The position numbers and the translations under genes are program-made. Under the pieces are notes generated by a model. That model did no database searches. It was given only the letters and a program-made list of their open reading frames with translations, and had not been told where the DNA came from. Source: Promethearchaeota archaeon (GTDB taxonomy: Archaea; Asgardarchaeota; Lokiarchaeia; Sigyniarchaeales; SOKP01). From it: a stretch of DNA of 64,000 bases. The first letter of the stretch is position 1. Each line of letters opens with the position of its first letter. The stretch spans positions 5,328 through 69,327 of the forward strand of contig JAEOTA010000056.1 of assembly GCA_016840085.1 (NCBI GenBank), in the 5' to 3' direction. Below, piece after piece: positions 7,315 to 19,640 of the stretch.

Positions 7315-7473
7315 AATTCATTTTAACCTCTTTTTACTTTTTAAAATTGGATTTAAAGGTAAGTTAATACTTATCATAATTTTATCTAAGAATTTCCATT
7401 TTTTTAAGGATCTATTAAAAAATAATAAAAACATTCGAATAATTTTATCAAATAGAACAAGAGGAAATTTAAT

Positions 7474-8262
7474 ATGGTAAAAAAATTGTTAATTGATAAT
7501 CCTGCTGTTTCCAATGTGGTTTTCTACCCTCGAAAAATTCTAATACCTGATGAAAGGGATTCAAACATTAAAGTCCTAAAACTTCAAATTACTAAAGATA
7601 TCCTTATTGGAGGTTTTTTTTATTTGAATAATCCAAATTATCCCACGATTTTATTATTCCATGGTAATGGAGAAATTGCAGCAGATTATCAGTATTTTTT
7701 AAATTTCTTTTTTAAATGTGATATCAATTTAGCAGTTGTGGATTTTCGGGGGTATGGATTTAGTTCGGGTGAACCTTTCTACACAAGTTTAATAATAGAT
7801 GCTTTACCAATCTATAATGCATTTTATAAGTGGATGATTGATAATAATATGAAAGATTCCTTATTTGTTCAAGGTCGTTCATTAGGGAGTATTTGTGCTT
7901 CTGAAATTGGATCATATAATCCTGAGAGTTTAAATGGAATTATTTTTGAAAGCGGATTTGCCAGTTTATATGATATGATGACAAGATTATTTAGAGTAAG
8001 TGGTTCTGAGATTACACCAGATTTCTTAAGTCAATATTCCAATGATACAAGAATCAGAAAATTTAAGAAACCAGTGTTAGTCATTCATGGTACTGTTGAT
8101 TGGATTATTCCTTATTATCAAGGAAAGATGATCTATGAAAATATTCCTGAGGAAGTTGAGAAAAATTTAGTATCAATAGAAGGTGCTGGGCATAATAATA
8201 TTTTTTCTTTTGAAGATGATTATATAACGCCCTTAAAAGAATTCATAAGTAAATTTAAATAA
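7474..8262 (+). CDS. Alpha/beta hydrolase (ABHD13/17-like)
   Basis: FHGNGE, DFRGYG, GRSLG nucleophile elbow, HGTVD, GAGHNN. Confidence 0.9.
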   Translation: MVKKLLIDNPAVSNVVFYPRKILIPDERDSNIKVLKLQITKDILIGGFFYLNNPNYPTILLFHGNGEIAADYQYFLNFFFKCDINLAVVDFRGYGFSSGEPFYTSLIIDALPIYNAFYKWMIDNNMKDSLFVQGRSLGSICASEIGSYNPESLNGIIFESGFASLYDMMTRLFRVSGSEITPDFLSQYSNDTRIRKFKKPVLVIHGTVDWIIPYYQGKMIYENIPEEVEKNLVSIEGAGHNNIFSFEDDYITPLKEFISKFK

Positions 8263-10044: not shown

Positions 10045-10269
10045 TTAATCACTCAGAAACTCATGGATTAAAATTTCCTTAAATTCTAAGTGTTTTTCTT
10101 TGAATGGGATCATTTCTTTTCCATCATAAATATCTGGAGGTGTGAATTTTTTAAATGCAACAGAGAAAGGGATGATAAGATTTGAGATATCAGGAAAATT
10201 ATTATTATCTACAGCTTCTTCATCAATATTAATTATTTTTATTTTTTTATCAATTATTTTTATACTCAA
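10045..10269 (-). CDS. Small IPF-motif family protein, copy 1
   Basis: ISNLIIPFSVAFKKFTPPDIYDGKEMIPFKEKHLEFKEILIHEF; TTG start with GAGGG 7 nt upstream. Confidence 0.8.
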   Translation of the reverse strand: MSIKIIDKKIKIINIDEEAVDNNNFPDISNLIIPFSVAFKKFTPPDIYDGKEMIPFKEKHLEFKEILIHEFLSD

Positions 10270-10409
10270 ATATAATCCCTCATTATGTTCTTTTTAATTT
10301 CAACATATTAAGCTAATTATTTAAGAGAAAACTCCCGACAAATTTAGTGATATATAAAAAAATTGCATTTCAAATTCTAATCTTAACACGGTTTTCATCA
10401 AGTAAAGTG

Positions 10410-10727
10410 TTATTCTATATGGAATTCATTTTTCATAACATGTTTAATTTTAGAATTGGGTTTCTTTATGATATTTCTTTTATCATTGGAGTATAAATCA
10501 ACTGGAAATTTTTCATTATAGATATTTAAAAGCAGAATTATTAAATTTGAGATATTATGGAAGCAAATTGAAGAATTTTTACAATTAAATAAGTCTGCTA
10601 CAAGCTTTGAAAGTAAAAAAAATCTCTTTTTTTGAACCTCCTTGTTTGTAGAATAATCGTCTGTTCTAAAAGTACTTTCTAGAAAATCTTCAACAAGTTT
10701 TTCAATAGATACTGAATCCATTTTCAT
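10410..10727 (-). CDS. Divergent IPF-motif family protein, copy 2 (N-terminally extended)
   Basis: ISNLIILLLNIYNEKFPVDLYSNDKRNIIKKPNSKIKHVMKNEF aligns by eye with copy 1. Confidence 0.7.
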   Translation of the reverse strand: MKMDSVSIEKLVEDFLESTFRTDDYSTNKEVQKKRFFLLSKLVADLFNCKNSSICFHNISNLIILLLNIYNEKFPVDLYSNDKRNIIKKPNSKIKHVMKNEFHIE

Positions 10728-10834
10728 CGTAAAATTGCAATTTTTTACGATTTATCTGAATTAAAATATATAAAGAAACAGCTTTTTTATCAAAACGAGT
10801 TTAGAGTAAATTCATTACTTTATATAAAAAATAT

Positions 10835-11074
10835 TTAATCAACCGTAAATTCAGCTATAAGAATCTTATGATATTTAGGGTGTCTTTCATTAAAAGGAAT
10901 TTTTTCATCTCCATTGTAAATATATTGAGGGTTCTCAATTTCATAAACTTTAGAAAAAGGTATAACTGCTTCTGAGATGATTGGATAAAATTTTTCTTCA
11001 AAATCTTCAATAATTTCCTGAAAAATTCTTTGATTATATCCTAATACCCTCTTGATGTTCTCGTATATTAAATG
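10835..11074 (-). CDS. IPF-motif family protein, copy 3 (not in ORF track; no canonical start codon)
   Basis: Manual translation: ...ISEAVIPFSKVYEIENPQYIYNGDEKIPFNERHPKYHKILIAEFTVD*; frame open from 11074 to the stop at 10835. Confidence 0.75.
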   Translation of the reverse strand, partial: HLIYENIKRVLGYNQRIFQEIIEDFEEKFYPIISEAVIPFSKVYEIENPQYIYNGDEKIPFNERHPKYHKILIAEFTVD

Positions 11075-11265
11075 CTAGTCTTATCAAATTATTTAACATT
11101 TTATTAATAAACTGCTTATATTTAATGATAAACAAAACCAAACATTTAAACAAAAAAAATATTGGCTTTTCAGTATTTTCCACTGAAATAAATGAAAAAG
11201 AAATGCAATAATTAAAAATTAAGTGAAAAACCAAAAATAAATCACTAAAAAAAATAAAAAAAAAT

Positions 11266-11577
11266 TTAATCAGAAATTCGTTCTAATTTAAAACATACAG
11301 GGCGAATACCATCTGGACATGCGGTATATATCATATCCTCTCCAGTCCAAGTGGGAAACCCACCTCCACATTGTAGAATAGACACATTCTTGTATAACCC
11401 ATACCACGCATGATGACAAAAACCTTCTGGCATATCCCCTGTTTCGTCTACAATAAACTCCATTCCCTCTTTTATACCACATTTAGTAATTGGGGTTCCG
11501 TCAAGTCGGATAAACTCATGTCCTAGTACATCCTCCGGTCCAAATTGTTTTACTACAGTAATTTTCACCTTACTCAT
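11266..11577 (-). CDS. TIGR04076-like Cys-containing small protein
   Basis: KVKITV, MPEGFCHHAW, ACPDGIRPVCFKLERI. Confidence 0.85.
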   Translation of the reverse strand: MSKVKITVVKQFGPEDVLGHEFIRLDGTPITKCGIKEGMEFIVDETGDMPEGFCHHAWYGLYKNVSILQCGGGFPTWTGEDMIYTACPDGIRPVCFKLERISD

Positions 11578-11652
11578 AATATTTCCTCCTTTTTTATCTA
11601 TTTGAGTTAATTTATTATTTTATTGTTTTATTATATTTCTGTCATTTATATT

Positions 11653-11982
11653 TTAATCTGAAATTCGCTCTAATTTAAAGCAAACAGGTTTACGACCATC
11701 CGAACATGATGTATGTTGAATACCTTCTTTATGTCCATAAAAATTCCCATTAAAATAGAGTACAGAAAGATCTTTATAGATATCGCGCCACGCCCAGCCA
11801 CAAAATCCCTCTGGCATTTTTTCAATATGTTCCACTATGAATTCTTGTCCCTCATCGAAGGCACCGCATGTAGTTATTTTTGTTCCCGATGTAGAAAATA
11901 CTTCATGTCCAAATACATCAATCGGACTGAATTTCTTAATTACAGTAATTTTTACTTTTGAAATTTCAATATTCACCATCAA
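11653..11982 (-). CDS. TIGR04076-like small protein (tandem paralog)
   Basis: KVKITV, MPEGFCGWAW, SCSDGRKPVCFKLERISD. Confidence 0.85.
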   Translation of the reverse strand: MMVNIEISKVKITVIKKFSPIDVFGHEVFSTSGTKITTCGAFDEGQEFIVEHIEKMPEGFCGWAWRDIYKDLSVLYFNGNFYGHKEGIQHTSCSDGRKPVCFKLERISD

Positions 11983-12252
11983 AATTTATTTTAAAATATA
12001 GAGAATGATAAAATTTATAGTTTTATTTGTTGAACTTCACTAGAAGTAAAAATTAAAAGCGAACTTTTGAATTAAATTATCTAAATAATTAATAATTAAT
12101 AATAGAAAGCTTATAATTGGAATTGTCCTCAAAGAGTCGCTAATTCTAAGAGTGAGAATTTCCAAAAAATTAAATAGAATCTTAAACTCATTTTTCCCAT
12201 ATTTAGGTTAAAATTAGTGAACTAAATAGATTATAGAAAAGAAATATATAGT

Positions 12253-13059
12253 ATGATGACAACAAAAATAAAGTTTGTTGATTTGAGCTTGGAAATTAAG
12301 GAAGGATTGGGCGACTTGCCACCTGAATTTAAATACCTTGAAGAAGGTTTATCTGCTAAAATCAAACACTTAGATCATAAAGATAACATCTCCTTAATGG
12401 TAAGTTCTTTTCCTGGTATTTCCCCCGAGAATCTTCCAGATGGTTTAGCTTGGGCTGATGATCTTCTAACAATTGGTGTTCATATGGGTACACATATGGA
12501 TGCTCCATGGCATTATCACCCGACCAGCGAGGGGAAAAAATCAAAAACTATTGATGAAATCCCTATCGAATATTGTTTTAGTGATGGGGTTGTGCTCGAT
12601 ATGACTCATAAAGAATCAGGAGATTTGATAAGCTCAAAAGATATTCAGGAGGTTCTTCAAAAAATTAAGTATACACTAAAACCATTGGATATTGTCTTGA
12701 TCCGGACAGATGCCGATAAATTCTGGGATACATTAAAGTACTGGACAGATTATCCAGGAGTAGGAAGAGAAGGAACAATTTGGTTGATCAATCAGGGAGT
12801 AAAGGTGGTTGGAACTGACGCATCAGGCTGGGATCGTCCTTTTCATTTTCAAGCTAAAGAATTTCGTGAAACTAGAAATAAAAACTTAATCTGGGAAGGA
12901 CATTATGCAGGTATTGAGAGAGAATATTATCAGATGGAAAAATTAACTAACTTAGACAAACTTCCTCCATATGGGTTCAAAGTTAGCTGTTTTCCTATTA
13001 AAATATTAAAAGCTAGTGCAGCATGGGTAAGACCCGTCGCTATAATCGAGAAATTTTAA
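12253..13059 (+). CDS. Cyclase / kynurenine formamidase family metal hydrolase
   Basis: HMGTHMDAPWH, VGTD, EKLTNL, VRPVA. Confidence 0.92.
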   Translation: MMTTKIKFVDLSLEIKEGLGDLPPEFKYLEEGLSAKIKHLDHKDNISLMVSSFPGISPENLPDGLAWADDLLTIGVHMGTHMDAPWHYHPTSEGKKSKTIDEIPIEYCFSDGVVLDMTHKESGDLISSKDIQEVLQKIKYTLKPLDIVLIRTDADKFWDTLKYWTDYPGVGREGTIWLINQGVKVVGTDASGWDRPFHFQAKEFRETRNKNLIWEGHYAGIEREYYQMEKLTNLDKLPPYGFKVSCFPIKILKASAAWVRPVAIIEKF

Positions 13060-13125
13060 TAAAATTAATTATTCATTTTGGATTAAGTAATATAATAAAA
13101 AACATAATTATACAAATTTAATAGA

Positions 13126-13959
13126 TTGAAAAAAATGATAGCTATTAAAGATTTTAGAGATATAAAATATGAAAAAGAAGAAAATGGCATAGGAACTATA
13201 ACTATTAATCGGCCAGAACGCAGAAATGCTCTATCTCCAATAACCTTTCTAGAATTGGAATCGGCATTCGATCATATGGAACGAGATGATGATATTAGAG
13301 TTGTTATTATTACGGGGAACCAAGATGGAAATGCATTCTCTTCAGGGGCATATATGAGCCCAAAGATAGCGAGTGAGATGACACCTGAAATAAAGGAAAT
13401 GTTAGATCCAACTGATAAATCGTCAATACATATGGCTCGAAAAATTTTTGATTTTCCTAAACCAATTGTTGCTGCTGTGAATGGGTTAGCTATTGGTGGC
13501 GGGATTACAATGCTTTTGATTGGTGCGGATCTTATTTATGCCTCCGAAAATGCATATTTAGGCTTTTATTTTGTACAAAATGCGTTTATGTCAGAATTTG
13601 CTTCAACCTTTCTTTTACCCCTCTATTTTGGATTTCAAAAAGCAAAAGAAATTATATATTTCGGAGCAAAAATTGAAGCTCAGGAAGCATTTGAGCTTGG
13701 TTTAGTCAATAAAGTACTTCCTCTTAATGAATTAGTACCTTATACGAGAGAACAGGCATTGAAATTAATCACTCCAAAAGCACCTGGGTTATCCATCAGA
13801 TTAATGAGGAAAGCCGTGCACGATATTTTTAAAGCTCAAATATACAAAATCCTAGATATAGAAAATGAAGGTTATACAACATTACTGAAATCAGAAAATG
13901 TAGGAATAGCAATATCTGCTAGACGTAAAAAAATAGAACCTGTATTTAAGGAAAGATAA
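13126..13959 (+). CDS. Enoyl-CoA hydratase/isomerase family protein
   Basis: ITINRPERRNAL, AFSSGA, KPIVAAVNGLAIGGG. Confidence 0.92.
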   Translation: MKKMIAIKDFRDIKYEKEENGIGTITINRPERRNALSPITFLELESAFDHMERDDDIRVVIITGNQDGNAFSSGAYMSPKIASEMTPEIKEMLDPTDKSSIHMARKIFDFPKPIVAAVNGLAIGGGITMLLIGADLIYASENAYLGFYFVQNAFMSEFASTFLLPLYFGFQKAKEIIYFGAKIEAQEAFELGLVNKVLPLNELVPYTREQALKLITPKAPGLSIRLMRKAVHDIFKAQIYKILDIENEGYTTLLKSENVGIAISARRKKIEPVFKER

Positions 13960-13974
13960 GATCCATTTTTTTTC

Positions 13975-14043
13975 TTAGATTAAGTTTGCAAATTCTTTTC
14001 TTAAAATCATCAAACATTCTAGATCTCTCTCTTAAAAATGAAT
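13975..14043 (-). pseudogene. 3' remnant of an IPF-motif family gene (copy 4)
   Basis: Translates IHF*ERDLECLMILRKEFANLI*; 54/69 nt identical (hand count) to the 3' end of the copy at 16269-16337. Confidence 0.75.
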
Positions 14044-14124
14044 TGGGGTTCGTATGGGTCTGGAAGTTCATAAATGAGAATTTTGACTATAATTTGTCGT
14101 TCTCTTATCAATCGCTTTTTACAT

Positions 14125-14137
14125 AAAAGCTTAAATA
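14125..14137 (+). promoter_or_regulatory. Putative archaeal BRE/TATA promoter of the beta-propeller gene
   Basis: AAAAGCTTAAATA about 85 nt upstream of ATG 14222; the same 13-mer occurs at 57996-58008. Confidence 0.4.
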
Positions 14138-14221
14138 TCCTTTTGACAAATATATAATTAAATCTTTTAACAAATAATCTGAAGATTTAGTTTAGAAATT
14201 TAAAATAAAATGGCGAAATAA

Positions 14222-16123
14222 ATGAAAAATAAAAAAATTTTAATAGTGTTAATACTCCTTATTTTAAATTTTAGCTTCGTGTTTCAGAAATATAACACTA
14301 TTAATACAGTTCAAGAAGAATGCGACAAGAAAGAAATAAACCCTATATTATCTTCTAGTATTTCTATTGCATACGAATGGAATAGGACATGGGACGGAGG
14401 TATTAATGATGAGGATTTGGCTTATGGAATCGTATTAGATACATCAGGTAATATTTATCTTGGGGGATATACATACAATAGTGTGAGTTATTATGACATA
14501 TGTGTGGTAAAATTTAACAGCTCTGGTGACTACCAATGGAATAGCACATGGGACGGAGGTATTAATGATGATGATTGGGCAAATGGAATAGCATTAGATC
14601 CATTAGGCAATATTTATCTTGCGGGAGTTACCTATAATACGGTAAGTGATTACGACATGTGTGTAGTAAAATTTAATAGCTCTGGTGATTATCAATGGAG
14701 TAGCACATGGGATGGAGGTATTAATGATGATGATAGGGCAAATGGAATAGCATTAGATTCATCAGGTAATATCTACCTTGCGGGATCAACATATAAACTT
14801 GAGAGTAATCACGACATGTGTGTAATAAAATTTAACAGCTCTGGTGACTATCAATGGAATAGCACATGGGATGGAGGTATTAATGATGATGATTATGTTT
14901 ATGGAATAGCATTAGATTCATCAGGTAATAATATCTATCTTGCAGGTGAAACCTACAACAGTGTGAGTCGTCGCGACATGTGTGTAGTAAAATTTGATGA
15001 CTCTGGTGATTATCAATGGAGTAGCACATGGAATGGAGGTATTAATGATAATGATAGGGCATATGGAATAACATTAGATTCATTAGAAAATATCTTTCTT
15101 GCGGGATACACAATAACTCCAGCAAGTTATTACGACATGTGTATAGTAAAATTTGATGACTCTGGTGATTATCAATGGAATAACACATGGGATGGAGGTG
15201 TTAATAATTGGGATTTAGCTTATGGATTAGTATTAGATTCATTAGAAAATATTTTTCTTGCGGGCTTTACAATAAATCCAGCGAGTGGTCTAGACATGTG
15301 TGTAGTAAAATTTGATGACTCTGGTGATTATCAATGGAGTAGCACATGGGATGGAGGTTTTAATGATGAGGATGTAGCTTATGGAATCGCATTCGATTCA
15401 TCAGAGAATATCTATCTTGCAGGATATACACATAAACCAGGGAGTTATGACGACATGTGTTTAGTGAAATATAATTCAGCACCAAAGATTAAGATTAATA
15501 CACCAATCCAGAATAATTATTATAGCATAATTGCCCCAAATTTTGAGATTTCTATTCTTGATTCAGAGTTAGATACTACGTGGTATACTTTAGATGAAGG
15601 GACAACAAACATTATATTTAGTGGATCAATAGGCAATATTAGTCAAGCAGAATGGGATAAAAAAGGCGAAGGTTTAATTACTATTAATTTCCATGCAAAT
15701 GATTCTATAGGCCTTGAGGGAACTTCAGGGGTATCTGTCTATAAAGATATAACGGCTCCAACCTCATCAATATCTTTTACACCGCATAAAGGAACTAATA
15801 TAGTGAAAAAATCAACCAGCTTCAATCTAACTGCTGATGATGGACAAGGTTCAGGCGTTGCTTCGATTATGTATAAAATTAATGATGGGGATTGGACTAA
15901 TTATAGCGATCCATTTGATTTATCTGATTTTAAATCCGGCAATCATAATATCTCATATTATTCAATTGACAAAGTGGGCAATATGGAAAATATAAACTCA
16001 CAACTAGTAAAAATACCTGGACCAGGCGTAATCCCTGGATACAACCTTTTACTTGTGATAAGCTTAATTTGTGTAATTTCAGTTGTTACTATTAAATATC
16101 GAAATAAAAGTCTAAAGAAATAA
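14222..16123 (+). CDS. Secreted SBBP-type 7-bladed beta-propeller surface protein with Ig-like stalk and IPGY/TM/basic C-terminal anchor
   Basis: Signal peptide; 7 repeats W..TWDGG..DD.A.GI.LD..GNIYLAG.T....DMCVVKF; DITAPTS Ig-like domain; IPGY-TM-KYRNK tail. Confidence 0.9.
   Translation: MKNKKILIVLILLILNFSFVFQKYNTINTVQEECDKKEINPILSSSISIAYEWNRTWDGGINDEDLAYGIVLDTSGNIYLGGYTYNSVSYYDICVVKFNSSGDYQWNSTWDGGINDDDWANGIALDPLGNIYLAGVTYNTVSDYDMCVVKFNSSGDYQWSSTWDGGINDDDRANGIALDSSGNIYLAGSTYKLESNHDMCVIKFNSSGDYQWNSTWDGGINDDDYVYGIALDSSGNNIYLAGETYNSVSRRDMCVVKFDDSGDYQWSSTWNGGINDNDRAYGITLDSLENIFLAGYTITPASYYDMCIVKFDDSGDYQWNNTWDGGVNNWDLAYGLVLDSLENIFLAGFTINPASGLDMCVVKFDDSGDYQWSSTWDGGFNDEDVAYGIAFDSSENIYLAGYTHKPGSYDDMCLVKYNSAPKIKINTPIQNNYYSIIAPNFEISILDSELDTTWYTLDEGTTNIIFSGSIGNISQAEWDKKGEGLITINFHANDSIGLEGTSGVSVYKDITAPTSSISFTPHKGTNIVKKSTSFNLTADDGQGSGVASIMYKINDGDWTNYSDPFDLSDFKSGNHNISYYSIDKVGNMENINSQLVKIPGPGVIPGYNLLLVISLICVISVVTIKYRNKSLKK
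14375..15478 (+). repeat. Seven intragenic tandem repeats of 159 bp (one unit 162 bp)
   Basis: Trp codon of the WDGG/WNGG motif at 14390, 14549, 14708, 14867, 15029, 15188, 15347. Confidence 0.92.
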
Positions 16124-16268
16124 ATACAATTTTTTTTCTATTTTTTTAATGAATATTTCTTTTCAAAATTATAATAGTATGGTCATATCGAAAGAAAATA
16201 TACTAATGAAACATGGCTTATTTAATGGCATAATCTAAGATATCAAAATACAAAAATAAATTCTCTTC

Positions 16269-16497
16269 TTAGAAACAATTTGCAAATTCTTGTCTTAAAA
16301 TCATCTTATATTCCGGATCTCTTTCTTTGAAGGGAATTTTTTCCACTACCAGAATAAATATCAATTGATTTATGAGATTTAAACATTTTAGTAAAAGGAA
16401 TGATAATCTGAGAGAAATCTGTACTTTTTTCTAAAACAATTTTATCCGGGCGTACAATGGATTCTTGAGAAAACTTATCTAATTTTCCAGAACTCAT
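16269..16497 (-). pseudogene. Frameshifted IPF-motif family gene (copy 5)
   Basis: FSQIIIPFTKMFKSHKSIDIYSGS, then one extra G; shifted frame continues EKIPFKERDPEYKMILRQEFANCF*, matching the intact copy at 17152..17427. Confidence 0.85.
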
Positions 16498-16512
16498 TTT
16501 AATATCACTTCC

Positions 16513-16997
16513 TTATTCTTTTACAATTAATTTTCCTCTTATTTGGAGTTTAATTCCAAGTTTTTCTAATTTATTTCGATATTCAAATATAATATCTCTC
16601 AGAATTTTCTTACTGATTTCTAGTTGTTCTGCCAAGATGTTAAATTCTATTTCATTGAATAGTTCTGAATACCTTACTATTTTCTGAACTTAATCTTGTA
16701 TAACTTGATCATAATCTGCTATTTCGATTTCTCTTGTAATATCATTTAATCTAAATTATATTTGCAAGTACATTAAGCTTCTCCGTCTAATTATATAAAT
16801 TTTTCATAATAAGGGATGCTCCATCGAAGAAAAATTCAATTTTCTTTAGTAATTTTAAATTCTCAGAAATAATCTTCTATTCTAACTTCAGATGATTTAG
16901 AATTAGCCAGTTTTTTAATTATCCTATCATAAAAAATATCCAAATAAACCACATGAACTACTGGTTTAAAAAATAATTTATCAATTCTTTCTGTCAA
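16513..16997 (-). pseudogene. Degraded paralog of the RHH/HTH gene 17450..17911
   Basis: From TTG 16997: ..VHVVYLDIFYDRIIKKLAN..*; another frame gives ..IQD*VQKIVRYSELFNEIEFNILAEQLEISKKILRDIIFEYRNKLEKLGIKLQIRGKLIVKE*; in-frame stops plus a frame change. Confidence 0.75.
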
Positions 16998-17151
16998 TCA
17001 GAATAACTAAAAATAGAATTGAAATTTAAGTCTTTTTAATCAATAAATCTAAGAAAAGTTATGTGTAATTTTTAGAATCTGTTATCATTTTCAACTGTTT
17101 TTTGTTCTAGCGCTGGTACTTTAAAAAAAGTTAAAAATGTAAGGCCAGATA

Positions 17152-17427
17152 TTAAAGAGTAGGAAATTTTATAACTGATTTATAGACCTTAAATTCAACT
17201 TTTAAGATATTGGCAAACTCTTGCCTTAAAATCATTTTATATTCAGGATCTCTTTCTTTAAATGGAATTTTTTCATTTCCAGAATATATATCAGAGGTTT
17301 CATATTTCCTAAAGAGTTTTGAGAAAGGAATGACAATTTCAGAAAGATTCAAATGCATTTCAAAGATTTCTTTTTGAATTTTTTCATCAAATGTATTAAG
17401 TAATTTATTTGAACTCATAATGCTCAA
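17152..17427 (-). CDS. IPF-motif family protein, copy 6 (intact)
   Basis: LSEIVIPFSKLFRKYETSDIYSGNEKIPFKERDPEYKMILRQEFAN; 22 nt downstream of the RHH gene. Confidence 0.85.
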   Translation of the reverse strand: MSIMSSNKLLNTFDEKIQKEIFEMHLNLSEIVIPFSKLFRKYETSDIYSGNEKIPFKERDPEYKMILRQEFANILKVEFKVYKSVIKFPTL

Positions 17428-17449: not shown

Positions 17450-17911
17450 TTAAATTTTAAATATTTGACCTTCTTTTAATTTTAGATTTAAACCTACTTT
17501 TTTAATCTCTTTACTATGTGTAAATATAATTTTTTTAATTATTTTGTTAGGAACATCAAAATGATCTGCTAGATCATCAATATCTACAACTTCGACTATT
17601 TCAAAAAACTCGGGAAGCTCTTTAATAATATCCTTCTCAATTTTTCGTAATGTCTTATCTAAAGCTAAACTTGCAGATTCAGAAAAAATTTCATCTGAAA
17701 TCTCCTTTATATCTACTCCATAATTTTTCTTTAGTAAATCAGGATTACTTTCAATCCATTGATGAACTATATTTCTCATACTATTTGAAAGAGATATATT
17801 TCTATTGGTAGCCATTTTATTTATTACTCTATGATCAAAATCATCTAATTTGACAGTAATTCTTGTTTTTTTCTCTTCAATATCCTCTTGATTTGTAGAT
17901 TCAGATGGCAT
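17450..17911 (-). CDS. Ribbon-helix-helix (CopG-like) + C-terminal HTH-like DNA-binding protein
   Basis: RITVKLDD..RVINKMATNRNISLSNSMRNIV RHH pattern; VDIDDLADHFDVPNKIIKKII HTH-like. Confidence 0.78.
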   Translation of the reverse strand: MPSESTNQEDIEEKKTRITVKLDDFDHRVINKMATNRNISLSNSMRNIVHQWIESNPDLLKKNYGVDIKEISDEIFSESASLALDKTLRKIEKDIIKELPEFFEIVEVVDIDDLADHFDVPNKIIKKIIFTHSKEIKKVGLNLKLKEGQIFKI

Positions 17912-17992: not shown

Positions 17993-18010
17993 TGCATCGA
18001 TTGTGATGCA
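17993..18010. promoter_or_regulatory. Inverted repeat TGCATC-N6-GATGCA in the divergent promoter region (candidate operator)
   Basis: Perfect 6-bp arms in an AT-rich spacer between 17911(-) and 18102(+). Confidence 0.4.
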
Positions 18011-18101: not shown

Positions 18102-18752
18102 GTGTGTAAAATGTTAGAACTCTATACCCCTAATTATGAAGTAATAAGTACCAAAGAACGAATAACCATTGATTTAATAAAAGATGGTCAAGAATTCTTG
18201 GAGCAATTTGACATTAACCATGAATTTTTATTAGATACTGTTTCCTTAGTATATAGATATTTAAGGATCAATGAGAAAATTCCCCATAATTTATATAAAT
18301 TCTTTGTGGCTGCATATTACATAATAACCAGACATCCATATAATTTTCCTGTTCATGAAACTAAGAGTGAACTTTGTCAGAAATTTGGCTTACAGGTGAG
18401 TTCTTTAGAGTATTGCGTAGAAAAGATGATTAACTCATTGAATTATATTAAATTATTAGATGATTCGAATTTCCCATATTTTGTTGATCCTGAACGAGAC
18501 ATTCGGTTAAATCTAACAAAAAGTATTACGAAGAAGAAAGTTGATAAAGCGATGATGAATTTTCTACTCTATCATCAACCAATAAACTCGCAAATCCTTA
18601 CTGAAGAGTTAGTACATGAAATAATTTTTGAACAAAAAGCGTTTCCAGAGGAACTTTTCCGTCAATTATATGAAATAATAATTGAATTCGTTGAAAAGCA
18701 ATTTATAGACTATAATGAATATGCAAAAATGCAACAAAAATATTTTATATAA
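18102..18752 (+). CDS. Protein with a single TFIIB/cyclin-like repeat
   Basis: FVAAYYIITR...TKSELCQKFGLQVSSL resembles the TFB AAxxYIAxR...TxxEVAxxxGVxxxTI; no zinc ribbon; alternative ATG at 18111. Confidence 0.6.
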   Translation: MCKMLELYTPNYEVISTKERITIDLIKDGQEFLEQFDINHEFLLDTVSLVYRYLRINEKIPHNLYKFFVAAYYIITRHPYNFPVHETKSELCQKFGLQVSSLEYCVEKMINSLNYIKLLDDSNFPYFVDPERDIRLNLTKSITKKKVDKAMMNFLLYHQPINSQILTEELVHEIIFEQKAFPEELFRQLYEIIIEFVEKQFIDYNEYAKMQQKYFI

Positions 18753-18800: not shown

Positions 18801-19640
18801 CTATTTCTTTTTTATTATATATCCGCATTGTGGACAAAAATTTAAATGCTCAGTTATTTGCATACCACAAAATTTACATCTAAAAGAAAATGTTTTTGGT
18901 TCCGCTTCTTTGGGTTCGGAAAATGATGAAATTGGGTCTGATTGGATAATCGAGGTAGTTTGAGGTTTTATATCCTTTTGTTCTGTGATTGATGGAACTG
19001 TTTGTAATTTTCTATCTGTATCTTGATGAACCTCAATAATAGCTTTTAAAGCTTTTTCATTAATTTTATCTTCTTTAGCATCTAAATTGATTGGAGTGGG
19101 TTTTGTTTTTTTAAACTTTGGTATAATATCTTTAGCTATAGGCTTTAAAGGAGGTACCAGGTCTTCTACTGGAATTGTTTGCCTTTTATCAATATATTCT
19201 TCAAAATCATTTTTAGTAGCTTTTCTTAAACTGTACCGATTCCCACAAATCTCGCAAAAATCTCTAATTGTATCTGTGAAATTCTTGCAGTTATCACAAA
19301 TAAAAGGCTGAGCTTCTAGAAAGGTTTTCCTATCTTGTATTAACGGTGTTAGAAATCCCACGCTCTCTCTATCACGATCTCTTTTTTCTTTTTTTTCTCT
19401 TTTAGGTTTAAAAGAAGAATTTTCAGTTTTAGGTTTGTAAGTAACTATATGATAATGAATTTCTCCGTTATATAGAGTTGAATATATTTTTCCACTAGAT
19501 TTCAATTCATTTAAGATTTTTGTGAGATGTTTTTTGCCATATTTTATCTCATTAGAAGGTAATATAAAATTATCTAATCTTTTCTTCAAAGCATTAACTG
19601 AAAGTGCTTTTCCTTGATATTCTTTCAAGTAATTAAGCAA
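18801..19640 (-). CDS. Winged-helix + zinc-ribbon protein
   Basis: LTKILNELKSSGKI wHTH; CDNC..CEICG and CKFCG..CPQCG ribbons. Confidence 0.7.
   Translation of the reverse strand: MLNYLKEYQGKALSVNALKKRLDNFILPSNEIKYGKKHLTKILNELKSSGKIYSTLYNGEIHYHIVTYKPKTENSSFKPKREKKEKRDRDRESVGFLTPLIQDRKTFLEAQPFICDNCKNFTDTIRDFCEICGNRYSLRKATKNDFEEYIDKRQTIPVEDLVPPLKPIAKDIIPKFKKTKPTPINLDAKEDKINEKALKAIIEVHQDTDRKLQTVPSITEQKDIKPQTTSIIQSDPISSFSEPKEAEPKTFSFRCKFCGMQITEHLNFCPQCGYIIKKK

Follow-up and report, generated by a model that had tools for sequence, protein, structure and literature searches.

An undescribed family of small proteins in one clade of Asgard archaea, with old paralogues at fixed genomic positions

Does a group of related small genes, crowded into 7.4 kb of an archaeal genome, record a recent burst of duplication, and do the encoded proteins act through the putative DNA-binding protein encoded beside them? 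The question is raised by a stretch of 64,000 nucleotides (hereafter, the window) from the Promethearchaeota archaeon assembly GCA_016840085.1 (contig JAEOTA010000056.1, positions 5,328 to 69,327), an AT-rich stretch with a GC content of 0.24-0.33. An earlier note had described there a six-copy expansion of a small-protein family under active gene birth and death. It had proposed that the family forms a docking or regulatory module acting on an adjacent ribbon-helix-helix (RHH) or TFB-like protein, or a toxin/antitoxin-like component. We find that all six copies are members of a family not described before, whose proteins are short (about 65-105 aa), hydrophilic and mostly free of cysteine, and that four of the copies are orthologues of old paralogue classes, named here A, B, C and D, found at the same syntenic positions in related genomes. 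We hold this descriptive account as a whole (an undescribed family, confined in the genomes searched to one Asgard clade, with old paralogues at fixed positions) with strong confidence.

Translation showed the family core at all six places, every one on the minus strand, and the copies ranged from intact to startless, frameshifted and remnant, as the earlier note had stated:

10045-10269, minus strand: copy 1, class D; intact, 74 aa from a TTG start; final gene of the B-C-D trio.
10410-10727, minus strand: copy 2, class C; intact, 105 aa, basic, diverged, both IPF motifs gone.
10835-11074, minus strand: copy 3, class B; open frame of 79 codons with the whole core and no ATG, GTG or TTG.
13975-14043, minus strand: copy 4; marginal remnant of about 20 codons covering the C-terminal helix, with an in-frame stop.
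16269-16497, minus strand: copy 5, A-type, at a second A position; frameshifted, its halves in two frames.
17152-17427, minus strand: copy 6, class A; intact, 88 aa from a likely ATG start at 17418.

The core comprises about 45 residues: a hydrophobic-Pro-Phe-Ser stretch, a DIYSG-like turn, a second Ile-Pro-Phe stretch and an end helix closing with IL..EF. Near-invariant positions are concentrated in it. With an independent family model (alignment A1) built from 109 database proteins, copies 6, 1 and 3 were recovered with E-values, calculated per genome, of 4.3e-34, 6.4e-17 and 4.7e-15, and the two halves of copy 5 with 2.4e-13 and 7.7e-12. Copy 6, which carries a C-terminal extension known from part of class A, is identical to database protein P0001. 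A seed model made from four window copies was compared with 172,282 segments from the six-frame translation of the same genome. It recovered its seeds, as expected, and one new copy on another contig, C50 (E 1.1e-12; 2.1e-14 with the A1 model). This seventh copy lies outside the window, at C50:13071-13289, adjoining helicase genes. Copy 4 was marginal in both searches (E 0.034 genome-wide with the seed model; 65% identity over 20 residues and E 0.006 by tblastn in the window).

Copy 2, rightly singled out by the earlier note as the most diverged, fell below significance on its own with the seed model (E=2 in the genome-wide six-frame search). Its product is 58% identical to the class C protein of a related locus, L016, a conserved protein of 103 aa (E 1.6e-36). 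The class C group in turn aligned with the family profile at 96.1% hhalign probability (E 2.8e-9) over 48 columns spanning the whole core. Since its orthologue group aligns with the family over the core, copy 2 is taken as a diverged member.

In classes A, B, C, D and H (the last from the helicase context described below), differences accumulated most at codon position 3, then 1, then 2, and median dN/dS per class was 0.23-0.43, indicating purifying selection. The codon-position pattern and dN/dS together rule out the reading that these ORFs (open reading frames) are not genes. The grand average of hydropathy was negative in every class, and the median cysteine count per class was 0 to 1. A word-indexed database search gave 109 clusters at E <= 0.01, carrying no Pfam domain and named only as 'hypothetical protein' from Asgard metagenome-assembled genomes (MAGs). 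An exhaustive profile search gave 215 representatives (50% identity) at E <= 1e-3, 98 of them at E <= 1e-10. Among the 150 matches listed, all but one (260 aa) were 42-131 aa long, so the family appears to be a stand-alone small protein.

The earlier note had not recognised the family, and the wider searches agreed with it. No family was found in Pfam, PADLOC or PHROGs for copies 6, 1 and 2, nor in NCBIfam for copy 6. Among the 109 members, 24 weak Pfam hits occurred, none of them common to more than four. The sequence search of the PDB gave nothing below E 0.29, and the best scores in the ESM Atlas (0.89, 0.88 and 0.86) fell on unnamed clusters, all under the tool's lead threshold. In viral contigs, 46 pattern matches included zero relatives. 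A link to S_100 was considered, as this Pfam family was hit by 4 of the 109 members (best E 0.11) and the best PDB entry was S100-Z at the E-value just given; we take it as chance. In the parts of the literature covered, no mention was found of the family or of a cyclin-only TFB-like Asgard protein; supplements may list the family.

How far does the family extend? Searching Asgard genomes with a family model and tabulating the neighbours, as the earlier note had suggested, gave recurrent neighbourhoods and no characterised family. The sampled set comprised 251 Asgard genomes from across the phylum. A family match occurred in 47, counting the present one (G000), all in one GTDB family: with the present genome set aside, 46 of 54 genomes in that family, versus 0 of 197 in 27 other families. 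By genus, the matches were distributed as follows:

Genus g1: 18 of 18 genomes with a family match.
Genus g2: 4 of 4.
Genus g3: 0 of 4.
Genus g4: 19 of 21.
Genus g5: 1 of 2.
Genus g6: 3 of 3.
Genus g7: 1 of 1.
Genus g8: 0 of 1.

A further scan, taking one genome per species over 185,579 species, yielded 56 loci, whose titles all named Asgard MAGs or MAGs of an uncultured archaeon. Genomes of the same genus hold 2-8 matches each, so the copy number of the present genome (6 matches, corresponding to 5 loci) is ordinary for its genus.

ORFs were called and clustered in the 56 related loci (L-numbers below), and the family was found in three contexts. In the first, that of class A, a gene for a protein of 216 aa is followed divergently by a gene for a protein with a putative RHH domain and a winged-helix-like domain (hereafter, the RHH-winged-helix protein) and then by small gene A. 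In the window these two neighbours are:

17450-17911, minus strand: RHH-winged-helix protein, 153 aa, upstream gene of the class A pair, with sub-threshold RHH hits.
18102-18752, plus strand: 216-aa cyclin/TFIIB-fold protein, divergent from the RHH gene, recognised by a fold match.

A homologue of each was present in 40 of the 56 loci. When a small gene was counted as lying behind the RHH gene if the family ORF started at most 120 nt from the RHH stop codon, 39 family ORFs in 38 loci qualified, starting 3-58 nt (median 15) after it; in the window the distance to copy 6 is 31 nt. In the remaining two of the 40 loci, L009 and L027, a family match falls in that slot too, but did not pass the ORF rule. 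The second context lies some kb downstream on the same strand, where a major facilitator superfamily (MFS) transporter gene, one to three TIGR04076 genes and a metallo-beta-lactamase (MBL)-fold gene precede B, C and D, which stand in tandem. C followed by D was found in 15 loci, with B as well in 11 of the 15. The third context was found in 7-8 loci and on contig C50 of the present genome. It consists of a Hel308-like helicase gene, an optional copy G, a gene for a conserved 98-aa protein and copy H, and converges on two genes, one for a DUF1922 zinc-ribbon protein and the other for a large helicase that we take from its sequence to be Hef-like.

Class-specific hidden Markov models (HMMs) placed the window copies in this scheme, as judged by the best versus the next class in bits. 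Copy 1 was assigned to class D (91.6 versus 68.8), copy 2 to class C (141.2 versus 21.1), copy 3 to class B (88.0 versus 62.4) and copy 6 to class A (109.3 versus 72.6). The halves of copy 5 also scored as class A (52.1 and 47.6 versus 35.5 and 33.5), and copy 4 did so weakly (18.9 versus 11.1). As the copies fall into the order D, C, B, A, A, the window shows the usual layout of the clade in reverse orientation. Copies 6, 3, 2 and 1 are thus orthologues of old classes, and the picture of a recent six-copy expansion has to be abandoned.

Turnover was seen at particular places. Directly upstream of copy 5 lies a further relic:

16516-16749, minus strand: pseudogene derived from another RHH-winged-helix gene, of the canonical 141-aa type; covers residues 64-141, the C-terminal half, and is interrupted by an in-frame stop.

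It matched the L016 protein by tblastn at 77% identity over 78 residues (E 8e-37), with one internal stop. Because this RHH remnant precedes copy 5, the window holds an intact pair (the 153-aa RHH variant and copy 6) plus a second pair in decay. At the DNA level, copy 5 can be aligned with L002:7904-8041 through the core, with an identical frame shift in the same run of bases, so this pseudogene is older than the split of the two genomes. A second A-type copy behind A was found in eight cases, intact in L021, L028, L033, L037, L045 and L047 and decayed in L002 and the window. Class B is unstable too: it is absent from 4 of the 15 C-bearing loci, and its end is out of register in L016. Copy 3 is either a start-loss pseudogene or a gene with a rare start codon. 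Birth and death therefore concerns the second A position and B, not the whole family. The claim of active turnover stands for copies 5 and 4, and perhaps for startless copy 3, and falls for the remaining copies.

The family could serve a purpose unrelated to its neighbours, for example as small subunits of complexes, and the gene order would then reflect vertical inheritance within a narrow clade. All carriers do belong to one GTDB family with long conserved synteny, in which the order of SpoU methylase, MFS transporter, GNAT and MBL genes is kept, and the three contexts share no common neighbour. Against this, the gap of 3-58 nt that follows the RHH gene (39 cases) is narrower than the spacing in the rest of the block, and the decayed second pair likewise consists of an RHH remnant followed by a small gene. 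We regard an unrelated function as somewhat unlikely. Copies 1-3 and the C50 copy have no RHH or TFB-like neighbour, so the tie to the adjacent genes proposed in the earlier note could hold for class A only.

What, then, is the gene in front of copy 6? All profile hits of its product were weak, and every RHH-type hit fell within residues 4-60. In Pfam, DUF6290 scored 24.9 bits (cut-off 27) and RHH_1 13.5 bits (cut-off 20.5; E 0.074). The RelB antitoxin model of NCBIfam scored 26.1 bits (cut-off 50), ParG gave E 0.043 and an Arc-like PHROG E 0.0084. The 190-bp intergenic region between this gene and the 216-aa gene is conserved and contains, between two TATA-like boxes, a candidate operator:

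17993-18010, no strand: palindrome TGCATC-N6-GATGCA in the divergent promoter region.

It matched once in the window versus 0 times in 100 shuffles. The palindrome scan covered 67 loci, and a stricter form was found exactly once per locus in 22 of them, in all 22 shortly upstream of the RHH gene on the side of the 216-aa gene. Farther loci showed repeated ATGCA units in place of the palindrome.

A DNA-binding gene placed first with a median gap of 15 nt, a promoter palindrome and a weak RelB-type RHH hit are features shared with type II toxin-antitoxin systems that have RHH antitoxins (RelB/ParD/CopG). Together with the several copies and pseudogenes, they speak for a reading in which the RHH gene and copy A form a toxin-antitoxin-like pair and the other copies are orphan or decaying toxins, as the earlier note had suggested for the family. 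However, the pair sits at one fixed, vertically inherited syntenic place in 40 loci, beside a gene conserved at 60-91%. The viral contigs, PADLOC and PHROGs gave no relatives or hits, and the small protein matches no known toxin family and no confident fold. Intact orphans B, C, D and H are under purifying selection with no antitoxin gene adjoining. Typical RHH antitoxins are smaller than 141-153 aa, the length of the upstream protein, which here carries a second, winged-helix-like domain at its C-terminus. The gene order fits a toxin-antitoxin pair and the rest does not; we judge this explanation very unlikely.

The third gene of the class A context was described in the earlier note as TFB-like, and modelling bears this out as a cyclin/TFIIB-type fold. 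The 216-aa protein is 60-91% identical across 26 locus homologues (alignment A3), and its model was confident at residues 17-130, with residues 159-216 below a pLDDT (predicted local distance difference test) of 50. The top Foldseek rows were all TFIIB/Brf (probability 1.00, E 1.7e-3, about 100 columns). VIA-align 2 aligned 104 residues with TFIIB at Z 11.8 and a root-mean-square deviation of 3.2, and gave Z 10.6 for Pyrococcus TFB and 10.7-11.1 for cyclins, values to be read with the caveat that, for helical folds, a Z below about 13 may mean no more than a similar arrangement. The N-terminal half thus models as a cyclin-box-type fold. Matches were confined to residues 13-133, the part where a second cyclin repeat would lie being of low confidence. 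The zinc ribbon and B-reader/linker of TFB are absent, as the helices start at residue 17 and there are no Cys pairs. No Pfam family was found for this protein at E <= 1, and NCBIfam gave no name either. It occurs, nearly always as a single copy, in 126 of the 251 Asgard genomes, in several GTDB families.

Eukaryotic cyclins bind short linear motifs at a hydrophobic patch. By analogy, the small proteins could be docking ligands of the 216-aa protein, their Pro-Phe stretches lying on the cyclin-box surface, with the RHH protein only regulating expression. The 216-aa gene adjoins the A pair in 40 of the 56 loci, its N-terminal half models as a cyclin box, and the small protein combines repeated short hydrophobic motifs with low monomer confidence. 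The ranges of the two proteins differ, however: the 216-aa protein extends over many families of the sampled set, whereas the small family is found in 47 genomes of one, and genera g3 and g8 have the former without the latter. There is, moreover, no kinase partner here, in contrast to eukaryotic cyclin docking. To our knowledge, hydrophobic-Pro-Phe is not a described cyclin docking motif. The docking-ligand reading seems distinctly unlikely to us. An extended form, with the 216-aa protein as a docking hub, the small proteins as its short-motif ligands and the RHH repressor setting their level through TGCATC-N6-GATGCA, would be highly improbable.

The reading that we favour, tentatively and as a possibility, is that the small-protein core is a partner-dependent binding module and that copy A is an accessory of the RHH repressor. 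The core, with its two hydrophobic-Pro-Phe stretches, DIYSG turn and amphipathic end helix, would fold stably only with a partner. AlphaFold2, given a 109-row alignment, modelled the small protein with a mean pLDDT of 60.7; only residues 50-70 reached about 80, and one long C-terminal helix was formed. This low monomer confidence, the negative hydropathy of every class and the repeated short hydrophobic-Pro-Phe stretches suggest partner-dependent folding. Paralogue A would be co-expressed with the RHH-winged-helix protein and could serve as its co-repressor or anti-repressor at the divergent promoter. The tight operon makes the RHH protein the first candidate partner of A, and the cyclin-fold neighbour the second. 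The other paralogues may bind different partners or each other. Median isoelectric points of 4.66 for B, 9.3 for C and 4.85 for D, that is, two acidic proteins and a basic one, invite the idea of a B-C-D complex.

Complex prediction for the RHH-winged-helix protein with copy A, both given as alignments, returned a score of 0.00 in two runs without controls, which speaks neither for nor against this favoured reading. Several observations do weigh against it. The low pLDDT can reflect an unfamiliar fold instead of disorder. At the helicase locus, the 98-aa protein encoded ahead of the family copy shows no relation to the RHH-winged-helix protein (hhalign probability 0.1%), and a shared partner domain is therefore not apparent. 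In the 67 loci scanned, neither the B-C-D trio nor the copies at the helicase locus had the palindrome upstream of them, and these paralogues are therefore not tied to the RHH protein. The g3 (0/4) and g8 (0/1) genomes keep the 216-aa protein without a small-family match, and three loci from these genera keep the RHH gene too; the RHH and cyclin-fold genes thus work without the small family. In genus g3 the slot right behind the RHH gene is filled by a conserved 76-aa ORF (L057:6287-6517 and L059:4105-4335) that has no detectable homology to the family (hhalign probability 0.85%); the slot protein was either replaced or diverged past detection.

Known archaeal systems offer a partial likeness to copy A as an accessory of the RHH repressor. 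In the CdrL/CdrS operon of Haloarchaea and the aCcr1 operon of Sulfolobales, the small protein is reportedly itself an RHH protein, whereas here it has no RHH signature or known family. What is alike is an archaeal RHH regulator linked to a small protein gene (PMC8406309; 10.1101/2022.07.28.501860).

The remaining genes around the copies are as follows. Upstream of the trio, the window has:

11266-11982, minus strand: two tandem TIGR04076-family genes (NCBIfam TIGR04076, E 1.4e-19).

Their products are Cys-rich proteins of 103 and 109 aa, and other loci have one to three TIGR04076 copies ahead of the trio or what is left of it. These genes belong to the conserved block; we claim no functional link to the trio. 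Most related loci also have an MBL-fold gene and the window does not. On the opposite strand, the block at 12253-16123 (plus) lies between the A and B positions and looks like a lineage-specific insertion. It encodes a cyclase, an enoyl-CoA hydratase and a 633-aa repeat protein with a signal-like N-terminus, about eight repeats of some 55 residues and a C-terminal membrane anchor. The gene at 18801-19640 (minus) encodes a protein of 279 aa that combines two zinc-ribbon motifs with a low-complexity linker; a homologue was seen only in the closest locus, L002. In the helicase context of the present genome (L067, C50:6000-19500), the conserved 98-aa protein, helical and with no family match, is encoded at 7439-7732 (minus) of the locus, between the G and H positions. 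A 203-aa protein also flanks its gene convergently, beside the DUF1922 protein and the large helicase.

For most Asgard genes no function is known, and those that encode small proteins have received the least study. The family described here is conserved, under selection and multi-paralogous, and its genomic partner is a putative RHH repressor with a candidate operator, beside a cyclin/TFIIB-fold protein. If docking proves false, it is a lineage-restricted family. The 216-aa protein, widely conserved and named by no profile library, may merit a study of its own. Three proteins and one DNA site could be produced and examined in vitro with no need for a culture. Docking of the small proteins on the repressor or the cyclin-fold protein, if it occurs, would amount to a previously undescribed regulatory module in the archaea most closely related to eukaryotes. 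Were the 216-aa protein the docking hub, this would be regulation by a cyclin box plus linear motifs, in which paralogues A, B, C, D, G and H would give different outputs.

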